Positions 6,685 through 56,773 of a stretch of DNA of 64,000 nucleotides are shown in pieces; the first letter of the stretch is position 1; each line of letters starts with the position of its first letter. Below the pieces are notes generated by a model. That model ran no database searches. It saw only the letters and a program-made list of their open reading frames with translations, and was not told the DNA's origin. The DNA is from a virus. Its lineage: Duplodnaviria > Caudoviricetes. The stretch is from the IMG/VR virus record IMGVR_UViG_3300028888_000001; one strand, written 5' to 3'. Both the position numbers and the translations under genes were made by a program.

Positions 6685-6829
6685 AATATCAATTCTCCTT
6701 TGGAATAATAATTATTTTATTGTCCGGCTAGCACTTATAAAAAATATTTTTAACTATATATTATATATTTGTAGAGATACTCAAGTATATCTACGTAAAC
6801 TATTGTTTTTAAAAGAAAGGGGCTTTAAA

Positions 6830-8169: not shown

Positions 8170-9165
8170 ATGAATAATACAACTAAAATGATCGGTTATC
8201 TAGAAAGTGCCGGTATTGGATTCTATGCAACATACAGTGTTGCTGTACTGAGACATATGATATGCATGGGTATTAATCCAGTAGATGCAGATGTTAACAA
8301 AGACACAATAGTTTTTGTCAAAGGCAATATTAAAAAGACAGCTAAGAGCCCGACAAATCTCGGAAAGCTTTCTGCTGATATGTTTTATGAAAGCATGCTG
8401 TCTAAACCAGAAGCGCTGGAAGCATTCAAGGAAGCCGTCAACTCACTGTCCAAAGGGCAATTCAAGATCAGGAAAATTGTTGACGAGCATGATCAGTTTG
8501 CCATTACCAATATATATTTCTACAGGCTGTTCTCCAATGGAGAGATGGGATTACTTAGAGAGTTCTATGGAGACTTTATAAAGCAGTTTTCCTTAAGAGT
8601 AGAAGCAGATGCAACCCGTAACGGTCTTGGAGTAGATTCACCAACTAACAATGATGAAAATCTTCTTCTTAAAAATAAGACAGATAAGACGGAAGAGTTT
8701 CTGAAGAAAGATGACTTTGAGTGGCTAAAGAAGAATAAAGAGGCTTATAATGGAACCAGAGAAAATCAAAAGGATTCTGAGATTCGTGGATTTAGTGTTA
8801 ATGATATTGATATTCCTTCGGTTGCTCAGTTTGTTACACAGCGTTATGATGTTAATATAGACGAAGACAAGCTGAAAGAGTTGACCAAGAAATACAAGAA
8901 CAATCTGTACAGCTCTATCAAGTGCAGTAATCCGCCAGATCAGGTTGATTTTAGCGAATATCGGAATACCGCCGTTAAAATCACATTCAATCATATAGAT
9001 AAACCCACCGTAAGATATTTTACATATGGGTATATTGATAAGGATGGAATTCTGTATATCTTTTGCGACGAATCATTCTCATTCATTACCGATGTTGATA
9101 TTGAAATCTTGCCAATGAGTAAGAAGAAGCTCATGAAAATCTTAGGCATCAAGAAAAGTAAATAA
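8170..9165 (+). CDS. hypothetical protein
   Basis: 331-aa ORF, AAAGGAG RBS; hairpin at 9171-9197. Confidence 0.75.
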   Translation: MNNTTKMIGYLESAGIGFYATYSVAVLRHMICMGINPVDADVNKDTIVFVKGNIKKTAKSPTNLGKLSADMFYESMLSKPEALEAFKEAVNSLSKGQFKIRKIVDEHDQFAITNIYFYRLFSNGEMGLLREFYGDFIKQFSLRVEADATRNGLGVDSPTNNDENLLLKNKTDKTEEFLKKDDFEWLKKNKEAYNGTRENQKDSEIRGFSVNDIDIPSVAQFVTQRYDVNIDEDKLKELTKKYKNNLYSSIKCSNPPDQVDFSEYRNTAVKITFNHIDKPTVRYFTYGYIDKDGILYIFCDESFSFITDVDIEILPMSKKKLMKILGIKKSK

Positions 9166-9221
9166 TATATAGGGGAGCGGATTAAATCCGCTCCCTTAAT
9201 TTTTAAGAGGGGAAGAACAAG

Positions 9222-9959
9222 ATGAAACTTAACAAAGCGTACTCAATATTTGAGTCAAATAATTCGCTTATGTTTAACAATATAGTGTCGAAGCCATACG
9301 CTGATCTCATGATAAAATATGAACCAGAAACAGTGTATCGTATTAGAAAGCATGATAGTGCTGTAAGCGTTCTTGAGAAGCGTTACACAACAGATTGGAC
9401 GTATGAATTTGTAGCAACTAAAGAAATACAGAGAGAAGATCTTCATAACGATGAGAACTATATTTTTGTCGATAATGAAATCGTCTATTCTGGTGTTGTA
9501 GCAACAAATATACCATCGAAAAACGCAATGGACAAAATATCAGCATTTGTTTCAGATCCGGAGTTTGATTTCGCTGATCTGATTACATGTAAATCTGCTG
9601 AGGAATATGCTGAAGTCTCTAGATGGCTTGAGTATGATTATTCTTTCCATATTACTGAGGCTGTAGTCGTAAGGGAAGAAAATAAAATCTTAAAAGATTT
9701 ACGCTTACAGCAGATCAATATTCCATATATAAGTCATACTGAAATCGGCGATATGGTATTTGTTGAGTTCAAGCTTAATGATGATACAATCATCACAGGC
9801 GAACGTCTTAGGCAATTCAGGAAAATCGCCAATAAAGCAATATCAGCGTTGTTTAACAAAGTATTCAATACTAGAGCTGTTAGCTTTAGAATATTCTCAA
9901 CAAATGAACCGTATAAAACACCGGCTGTAGTACAAGACAACAAGAAATATATGCACTAA
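9222..9959 (+). CDS. hypothetical protein
   Basis: 245-aa ORF, GAGGGG RBS; terminator at 9976-10012. Confidence 0.75.
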   Translation: MKLNKAYSIFESNNSLMFNNIVSKPYADLMIKYEPETVYRIRKHDSAVSVLEKRYTTDWTYEFVATKEIQREDLHNDENYIFVDNEIVYSGVVATNIPSKNAMDKISAFVSDPEFDFADLITCKSAEEYAEVSRWLEYDYSFHITEAVVVREENKILKDLRLQQINIPYISHTEIGDMVFVEFKLNDDTIITGERLRQFRKIANKAISALFNKVFNTRAVSFRIFSTNEPYKTPAVVQDNKKYMH

Positions 9960-42537: not shown

Positions 42538-43923
42538 ATGGCCAGAAAATATCATTGCATGTATTGCAATCAGTTGTTTGAACGACCTAAATTAATACAA
42601 CACATTGAAAAGAAACATAGAGAAATGATACCTCAGGGGTATACAGCAGCAAGACTGGTATTTGATAAAATAAACAACACCACTGGAGGTAAATGTAGAG
42701 TATGCGGTAGTCCAACAAATTGGGATGAGAATCTTAATAAGTATAGTGTACTATGCGATAACCCAAAGTGTAAAGAAGAATTAAGAAATAGATATAAACA
42801 AAATATGCTTCGTGTTAGAGGTACTTATAATATTCTTAACGATCCAGAGCAACAGAAGCTTATGCTCTCCCATAGAAAAATTTCTGGTACATATCATCAT
42901 TCAGATGGTGGTGAGATTGGCTATACTGGAGAGTATGAGCGTAAAGCTCTTGAATTTATGGATGTATTTATGAGAATACCATCCAAAGACATTATATCAC
43001 CAGGTCCAACTATGGAATACACCTATAAGGGCAAAAAGCATATTTATATTCCAGATTTTATATATTTACCATATAACCTCATAATAGAGATTAAAGATGG
43101 TGGAGAAAATCTTAATAATAAACAATCTCAATCTATGATTGAATCTAGAGAAAAAACTATAGAAAAAGAACGCTTGATTACCGATAAAGGTCAATACAAT
43201 TATATCAGACTTACAGATAATCAATTCGTTCAGCTAGTAGAAGTCTTCATGGAGATTAAAGAGAAGCTTCTAAATGAAGATGACTCTAAAACAGTTAAAG
43301 TTAATGAAGCAGCGATACATGTACCAGATCAAGTCAATGATTATTTTATTTCTAAAGGCACTTATTCAGAATTTCAGTTTATCCTAGAGATGAATAATGA
43401 TTTTTGTACGACTAAAAAATACGCTGATATATCACCTAATGACGTTATAAAATACAAAACTCTCACTCCAAAACAGTTTGAAAAATATGGCTATGGGGTT
43501 TGTTATGATTATGTATGCTCTGAAGATTTTTGGTTTAGAACTAAAATTTCAGATGTAAGACATGAAACCTGGTATACTATAATGCAGGATGATACAAACT
43601 ACACAGAGACGCATACATATTTAATATTTGAGTATAAATCAAAGTGGTATTGGTTTGAAGCAGCATGGGAAGAATATGCTGGCGTTAGAGGATTCAATTC
43701 TAAAGCAGACTGCGTTAAATATGTAGAGTATCTATTCGCAAAGAGATTTAAAAACCCATCTGTGTTTGCTACAAAGTATGATGCATCTGATAAGCATCTA
43801 ATGGAAATTACTTTAAATCAATTCAATGATTACATGACAGCTCGGATGAGCCATAAAAACAAAGTTAAATGGGAAGATGGCAAGAATATTAAATATATAT
43901 TTAAACAAACTCCTAACAATTAA
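42538..43923 (+). CDS. zinc fingers plus PD-(D/E)XK nuclease (TnsA/T4 gp4-like) fused to a transglutaminase/papain-like domain
   Basis: CMYC..HIEKKH, CRVC..CDNPKC; YIPDF...IIEIKD; GVCYD...HTYL...WYWFE; late motif at 42499. Confidence 0.65.
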   Translation: MARKYHCMYCNQLFERPKLIQHIEKKHREMIPQGYTAARLVFDKINNTTGGKCRVCGSPTNWDENLNKYSVLCDNPKCKEELRNRYKQNMLRVRGTYNILNDPEQQKLMLSHRKISGTYHHSDGGEIGYTGEYERKALEFMDVFMRIPSKDIISPGPTMEYTYKGKKHIYIPDFIYLPYNLIIEIKDGGENLNNKQSQSMIESREKTIEKERLITDKGQYNYIRLTDNQFVQLVEVFMEIKEKLLNEDDSKTVKVNEAAIHVPDQVNDYFISKGTYSEFQFILEMNNDFCTTKKYADISPNDVIKYKTLTPKQFEKYGYGVCYDYVCSEDFWFRTKISDVRHETWYTIMQDDTNYTETHTYLIFEYKSKWYWFEAAWEEYAGVRGFNSKADCVKYVEYLFAKRFKNPSVFATKYDASDKHLMEITLNQFNDYMTARMSHKNKVKWEDGKNIKYIFKQTPNN

Positions 43924-43925
43924 GT

Positions 43926-44090
43926 AAACCCAGATTGAATAATCGATCTGTTCACATATGTTCTTCATGGCTGAGTGTTTAGACCATTCTTGTAGGGCGA
44001 AGTTTGTTTCTAAACATAAAGCACCTCCTTCAACTGATAAAGATAGAAGCAAGAGACTCTAGGGAGTTTTCCCTAGAGTCTCTCTTCTTG
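43926..44090 (+). ncRNA. candidate late sRNA with anti-SD/anti-AUG module
   Basis: Late motif 43915-43926; 5' hairpin CAGATTGA/TCGATCTG; CAT-AAAG-CACCTCCTT at 44015-44030; terminator 44053-44082. Confidence 0.55.
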
Positions 44091-52817: not shown

Positions 52818-52884
52818 GTAGGATTACTCCTTTCGATTTTATATATCAAATTAAACAATTATCAAGATGTCCGAGAAATATAAA

Positions 52885-52995
52885 CAAAAAATAATGGCCA
52901 AGGGATAACCCTTGGCCATATTTAGAGTGCATATCGCTAAAGTTACAAGTAAAGAAAACAACGACCAGTCCTAAATCCTAGCCATCGCCCTCTTT
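52885..52995 (-). ncRNA. candidate late sRNA (G-U-rich long hairpin plus terminator)
   Basis: Late motif 53006-52995; terminator 52893-52920 with T-tract; next gene has its own promoter. Confidence 0.5.
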
Positions 52996-53011
52996 ACAAT
53001 TATGTTAAAGT

Positions 53012-53120
53012 GAAAACCCCGGAGGCTATCAACCTCCGGGATGTTCAAAAGGAGAAACAAAGATGAAACTCAAACAAAACTATGATGTGAATCAAAGCGG
53101 GGTCCACCAATCTCCGCTTT
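53012..53120 (-). ncRNA. candidate late sRNA with anti-SD/anti-AUG seed
   Basis: TACA-TAAGAA-TA at 53131-53120; 5' hairpin AAAGCGG/CCGCTTT; U-rich seed CAUCUUUGUUUCUCCUUUU; terminator 53017-53041. Confidence 0.6.
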
Positions 53121-53152
53121 ATTCTTATGTACTATATAATGTAGAATTTTAT

Positions 53153-53434
53153 TTATTTTAACCTTCTTACAGTAATACGAACAGCATATGCTTCATTGTT
53201 TACTTTAACAATTTTTTCTTTGGCTACCCCATCAAAATTATAATTATTGTCATTATCAGAAAGATCCATAATATTATAATTAGGATCACTGCTTACGACA
53301 CCTCCTAGGGTATCTTCAAAATCAAAATCGGATGTTTCTGTTGTATCAATAGTTTCGCCTTTAGCGATAGATACATGATCTCCAACTTCACTTTCAGTAA
53401 AAACGCTTTGAACAATAGCATCGATATCAATCAT
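53153..53434 (-). CDS. small acidic late protein
   Basis: AAGGAGG RBS; FTE-S site. Confidence 0.7.
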   Translation of the reverse strand: MIDIDAIVQSVFTESEVGDHVSIAKGETIDTTETSDFDFEDTLGGVVSSDPNYNIMDLSDNDNNYNFDGVAKEKIVKVNNEAYAVRITVRRLK

Positions 53435-56656: not shown

Positions 56657-56773
56657 CTTATAGATACCTCCTTTAATTTTTATTACCAAAATGTTTTGGT
56701 AAAATAAGGCTTAACCATATAAAAGCTAAGCCTTATAATAACTTAAAGGAGAGTTTAAAACCATGAGTATCTA

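Follow-up and report, generated by a model that had tools for sequence, protein, structure and literature searches.

The intergenic gap at 52818-53152 of the window (the whole stretch of 64,000 nucleotides analyzed here, part of one 313-kb contig of an uncultured jumbo phage from gut) very probably contains a real RNA gene, termed unit 1; the favored interpretation of its motifs and pairing pattern is a late, trans-encoded antisense small RNA that would repress gene 9222. The contig carries genes for RNA polymerase beta/beta' subunits, a major head protein, a prohead protease and GroEL, and its closest cultured relatives are AR9, PBS1 and Staphylococcus jumbo phages, at ~34% identity; judged by its sequence, the phage is an AR9/PBS1-like jumbo phage, and strong AGGAGG-type ribosome sites suggest a host within the Bacillota. 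Relatives of this phage were not found in the IMG/VR and GTDB collections. In the window orientation, the final ~13 kb of the contig contain almost no table-11 genes >115 aa according to the ORF caller.

The timing of expression is predicted from two promoter classes. The early motif TATATTATA is enriched in regions upstream of genes of this genome, and ACA-N6-TA is enriched upstream of genes at a gap of 6 nt only (AACA, 40 occurrences vs. 18.5 in shuffled sequence; TACA, 27 vs. 16.7); both agree with the early and late consensus sequences of AR9 (PMC5312081), and by this sequence evidence ACA-N6-TA is the late motif of the genome. Three late-type motifs occur on the minus strand of the gap, at 53131, 53006, and 52871, together with two minus-strand terminators (53042-53016 and 52919-52894). 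The features of the gap are as follows:

52818-53152: intergenic gap between two minus-strand genes
53120-53131, minus strand: late-type promoter TACA-N6-TA with predicted +1 at 53120, from motif enrichment and the AR9 consensus
53008-53120, minus strand: predicted small RNA of ~113 nt (unit 1), from promoter and terminator motifs
53094-53120, minus strand: 5' region that in computed folds forms a local hairpin, or pairs with ~53047-53056 and masks the anti-Shine-Dalgarno (anti-SD) sequence
53071-53077, minus strand: seed extension, complementary to codons 7-8 (Tyr-Asp) of 9222 orthologs and not of the window's own allele
53044-53070, minus strand: antisense seed with anti-codons 2-6, anti-AUG and anti-SD, pairing with window 9202-9238
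53008-53042, minus strand: intrinsic terminator; its CCGGAGG/CCTCCGG stem is retained in two sister lineages
52885-53006, minus strand: tandem unit 2, with a late promoter (53006-52995), a conserved G.U-rich hairpin and a terminator (52919-52894)

At the motif level, unit 1 combines its own promoter and an intrinsic terminator (the stem at 53042-53016 plus a U-tract, on the minus strand only) with the lack of a conserved ORF, as expected of a trans-encoded small RNA. The first base of its promoter deviates from the consensus (TACA); the aligned promoters of sister phages are canonical (AACA-N6-TA). The stretch from 53153 to unit 1 is free of terminators, and the RNA may therefore alternatively derive from the 3' end of the late mRNA transcribed from upstream. 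The whole RNA folds better than shuffled sequences (z=-3.6), into two near-equal structures, one with a 5' hairpin (-34.9 kcal/mol) and the other with the 5' GGAGA on the anti-SD (-37.0 kcal/mol); the latter is better by ~2 kcal/mol, so that the seed is only partly single-stranded and partly caged, and opening it costs ~8.7-8.9 kcal/mol, the 5' end of the RNA covering part of the anti-SD. The initial annotation of this DNA had described a minus-strand order of promoter, 5' hairpin, U/C-rich tract, and terminator; promoter, tract, and terminator were recovered, whereas the open hairpin fold is one of the two near-equal alternatives. A blastn search of the locus against cultured phages returned chance matches only, Rfam yielded no credible family for unit 1 at the gathering score or at E<=5, and a degenerate version of the seed had no match in viral contigs; the seed 21-mer matched once in 596 Gb searched, at a Solobacterium gene start, which was treated as chance.

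The predicted target lies in the opposite orientation, in the first part of the window:

6755-6765, plus strand: early-type promoter motif heading the gene run that ends in 9222, by the AR9 early consensus (PMC5312081)
9170-9198, plus strand: strong terminator-like hairpin directly before the Shine-Dalgarno sequence (SD) of 9222
9202-9238, plus strand: predicted target site, comprising SD, AUG, and first codons of gene 9222
9222-9959, plus strand: target gene of 245 aa, with matches in this phage group only

Gene 9222 had been placed in an early-gene island 44 kb away from the seed. It is indeed the fourth and last of the plus-strand genes after the early motif at ~6755, but the strong hairpin at 9170-9198 intervenes; this hairpin shows compensating changes in the orthologs, and the gene upstream of it differs between lineages. 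The early motif and the conserved hairpin before the SD make 9222 probably an attenuated early gene, expressed probably by read-through of the hairpin. Function searches with 9222 gave no Pfam or PHROG family, no atlas match and an empty fold search; its structure model has a pLDDT of 42, and only 3 cluster representatives are available. The preceding orphan gene at 8170-9165 (plus strand) has a start that shares a 13-mer across the ATG with a module of sister lineage B (module 2, -29.2), which would make a lineage B ortholog of this gene a candidate target of that module; the homolog search with the 8170 gene gave no match.

The pairing between seed and target is more extensive than the exact 11-mer on which the 9222 assignment was originally based. 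This 11-mer occurs exactly twice in the 313 kb, at 53060 and 9219, and it is embedded in a 35-bp duplex, with 5 G.U pairs, no mismatched pairs, a one-base bulge and a 1x2 loop, that spans the SD, the AUG, and codons 2-6 of 9222. In a comparison of duplex energies between the 50-nt linker and each of the 264 predicted start regions of the genome, 9222 ranked first at -38.2 kcal/mol (next -31.9; mean -16.9, sd 4.9; z -4.3), and it was the best non-self site in 20,878 genome windows on both strands; with a longer coding window, the runner-up start reaches -36.3 and the gap to 9222 becomes smaller. Net of the cost of opening both RNAs, 9222 remains first (-25.2 vs. -19.2 for the next start). Because any gene start resembles any other, two null models were used: shuffles with fixed SD and ATG did not reach -38.2 in any of 300 cases, and of 264 antisense copies of real starts, 8 attained this value, seven of these being duplicated leaders, which leaves 1 of 257 unrelated starts. 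Among 81 look-alikes of SD plus start in non-coding DNA, unit 1 ranked first or second, and no other high scorer was backed by a late motif. About three such modules had been examined for the initial annotation, which gives a corrected chance of ~1-2%. As a caveat, a foreign module, from lineage B, attains -37.6 against starts of this genome, and values near -38 are thus within reach. The imperfect complementarity to a distant SD and AUG exceeds chance, as expected of a trans-encoded small RNA, and overall the interpretation of 9222 as the target is supported.

The 9222 orthologs of sister phages (55-58% identity) provide an out-of-sample test. With the start of the L009 ortholog, which belongs to another lineage, the window seed forms 40 bp at -40.5, and with the lineage B ortholog it reaches -33.4. 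At all five ortholog loci the duplex gains six pairs at codons 7-8 (Tyr-Asp), whereas in the window's own 9222 these codons are Tyr-Ser and the six-pair extension is missing; the hexamer occurs at that position in only 1-2 of 264 genes. Since this match could not have been selected in the initial annotation, it ties the seed to the start region of the 9222 family, and the seed would most simply be an inverted copy of the start region of an older 9222 allele.

The same comparison bears on two other readings. One, which is rather unlikely, retains a real small RNA and moves its working targets elsewhere, to several phage starts, host mRNAs, or the 9222 ortholog of co-infecting sister phages; the match to 9222 would then be a record of origin or of inter-phage conflict, and not of self-regulation. 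The seed prefers the L009 ortholog (-40.5) over the window's own gene (-38.2), second-rank starts lie at -32 to -36, an 18-mer is identical with the SD region of gene G133070, and two other modules of this genome, at 56763 and 44017, have no stand-out target among phage starts. Against this stand the lead of 9222 by 6 kcal/mol after opening costs, and Watson-Crick pairing of the seed at three C positions of the window's 9222 allele where lineage B has T, with the lineage B ortholog pairing more weakly. The second reading, a dead 5' fragment of a 9222 paralog in a 3' UTR, transcribed passively or not at all and without regulatory effect, has a small probability. Colinearity between the seed and the gene family extends from -20 to +24, in a common frame (MKL..YD), and genome-wide such anti-start tracts are not enriched in co-directional gaps (4 of 105 vs. 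2.2 +/- 1.5 in shuffled sequence). All five substitutions of the seed relative to the target yield G.U pairs, although those from G to A, which create U.G pairs, are equally compatible with a dead copy decaying under AT bias. Pair-breaking C-to-T changes, in contrast, do not occur in the seed, the similarity ends at the edges of the ribosome footprint, and four other lineages have different modules at this gap, in each case antisense and flanked by promoter and terminator.

These other lineages were gathered through homologs of the downstream 381-aa gene, which led to five in total (B-F). In lineages B and C (75%), late promoter, terminator stem and unit 2 are all retained, and the seed is absent; lineage C has a single hairpin with an anti-SD loop, and lineage B has a hairpin of this type and two more anti-AUG/anti-SD modules in tandem. 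Lineage D (69%) has a promoter, a 5' hairpin, two modules, and a terminator; lineage E (54%) has a promoter, one anti-SD tract, and a terminator; and in lineage F the gap shows no more than a weak tract, located at the upstream stop codon. Four of the five lineages, B to E, have in common a unit of late promoter and terminator at the same gap, with one to three differing anti-SD modules each. The three modules of lineage B follow in a row (L068:3593-3722, L071:9648-9780); between two strains of this lineage, an A-to-G change in module 3 still pairs with U, and small indels occur besides. The sequencing run of lineage B includes its 9222 ortholog, and this is the only lineage in which pairing with its own ortholog was examined: all three modules pair with it poorly (-13 to -23), and the proposal that module 3 covaries with the lineage B 9222 start was rejected (-17 to -23). 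The seeds of sister phages have been replaced wholesale and not co-mutated with 9222; the conserved frame, the exchanged seed and the poor fit of the lineage B modules to 9222 together indicate that the predicted targeting of 9222 is specific to the lineage of the window. No targets were found for the modules of the other lineages, with lineage B sequence covering ~35 kb. In more distant relatives, an RtcB gene and an RF-1-domain gene form a pair near the locus (L072:12875-14655, L005:7442-8284).

The sister lineages also bear on a protein-coding reading of the plus strand:

53063-53161, plus strand: 32-codon frame opened by the mirror SD and ATG, judged not to be a gene

If this frame were a 32-aa gene with a good SD, as its opening by AGGAG-N8-ATG allows, the 9222 match would reflect resemblance between starts and the minus-strand RNA would be a cis-antisense partner in the manner of type I toxin-antitoxin systems. 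This is very improbable: the plus strand has no early or late motif within 330 nt, the coding score is small beyond its SD and ATG terms, and the minus strand is predicted to be transcribed across the whole region. The counterpart plus-strand frames of the sister modules are 3-6 codons long and unrelated, which removes the small-protein reading. Membership in the type I toxin-antitoxin class was likewise rejected; the overlapping small ORF lacks a nearby promoter and is absent in relatives.

For the favored antisense RNA, a mechanism can be proposed. Late in infection, the non-virion RNA polymerase of the phage would transcribe the ~113-nt RNA, as its promoter motif suggests. The 5' end of this RNA would partly shield the anti-SD and, in the computed folds, leave the anti-AUG and anti-codon part free as a toehold; the exposed anti-AUG region would nucleate pairing, and the anti-SD would then be freed from the 5' end. 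The resulting 35-bp duplex would cover the translation start of the early-operon gene 9222 from the SD through the AUG into the first codons, would block 30S binding and would probably be cleaved by RNase III; a chaperone should be unnecessary because the duplex is so long. The seed may have arisen when an earlier version of the 9222 start region was copied in inverted orientation into an existing promoter-terminator frame, and the filling of the same frame with other anti-start modules in sister phages would make the locus a re-targetable silencing slot. As a tentative extension, AR9-like jumbo phages may possess a fixed late promoter-terminator frame that captures antisense copies of gene starts, can stack them (lineage B has as many as three) and exchanges them for others. 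If true, the frame would amount to an RNA silencing cassette that is re-programmed naturally and is directed against early genes of recent acquisition or against their counterparts in competing sister phages. Unit 1 itself would offer a possible route for a phage with two RNA polymerases to silence leftover early mRNA late in infection, and wholesale seed replacement in a conserved frame would show new regulatory RNAs arising from copies of their targets.

The c4 RNA of P1/P7 is a processed RNA with short loop seeds, and the P22 RNA sar overlaps the leader region of ant. Like unit 1, c4 is a phage RNA that acts in trans on the phage's own mRNA around the ribosome-binding site, with sequence differences that give specificity between sister phages (PMC12197685); it differs in controlling an antirepressor operon of temperate phages, whereas unit 1 combines a jumbo phage, a late promoter of the phage's own polymerase, a single 35-40-bp duplex and a seed replaced wholesale between lineages. 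Membership of unit 1 in the C4 family was rejected, since C4 was not among the Rfam entries at E<=5, the target has no Pfam or PHROG family and the phage is AR9-like. The P22 RNA sar also pairs with a phage mRNA and blocks translation initiation (PMC12197685); it serves lysogeny, whereas the target of unit 1 lies 44 kb away and is paired imperfectly. Small RNAs of phiKZ, 201phi2-1, and phiR1-37 (misc_4) are, like unit 1, short ORF-less jumbo-phage transcripts, but they are without validated targets, mostly derived from 5' UTRs, and none is described as an antisense copy of a phage start (PMC10914365, PMC11512511, PMC4848604). SviR of the satellite PLE, as cited in PMC10884466, is a small RNA acting in trans on lytic-phage transcripts; it is encoded by a parasite against ICP1 and not by the phage. 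In reviews up to 2026, the non-coding RNAs listed for lytic phages, jumbo phages among them, are without validated targets. Unit 1 and 9222 constitute a specific, testable candidate RNA-target pair; what this case adds is one target that ranks first, a connection to the target family that was tested out of sample, and, within a conserved frame, seeds that are replaced and stacked.

The closest structural counterparts occur in AR9 itself, where the late starts at 75478(-) and 115851(+) both lead into an anti-SD tract and then a strong hairpin. These starts come from dRNA-seq and are annotated in Table S3 of that study only as antisense to neighboring genes, with 75478(-) having the greatest step height (3757) among the Table S3 entries listed (Lavysh et al., 2017, PMC5312081). 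They resemble stand-alone anti-SD small RNAs (L075:560-679, minus strand; L076:552-640, plus strand). Both share with unit 1 the promoter class and the build of anti-SD tract and hairpin, but they have no sequence similarity to it and no target or function in the tabulated entries (PMC5312081); by analogy, they set a precedent for a cultured relative expressing units of this build, and do not count as evidence on unit 1 itself. With similarly built, highly expressed units in AR9, the class becomes directly testable.

Several neighboring elements share features with unit 1. The hairpin of unit 2 has 19 bp, is G.U-rich and is kept in lineages B and C; in an alignment of four sequences, 98.7% of cells are paired, with six one-sided changes and one two-sided change. 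Its 5' arm resembles an SD and ATG, and its loop contains a 4-codon frame. No clear target was found for unit 2, and a scan with its pattern gave short matches only, which are probably due to chance. An anti-SD, mostly accompanied by an anti-AUG, occurs in the 3' UTR of a 386-aa gene (window 56735-56773, minus strand) and is retained with a changed spacer in four other lineages (L071:6027-6134, L001:132-242, L004:90-226, L072:3663-3789). A late-promoter unit with anti-AUG and CCUCCU at window 43915-44090 (plus strand) is conserved in lineage B (L068:12812-13060, minus strand), where its version reaches -37.6 with the start of a gene that lies 18.5 kb ahead of the window. Further out, ~47,230 bases ahead of position 1 of the window, a co-directional gap contains a fourth anti-start tract, which reaches -34.1 with the start two genes upstream.
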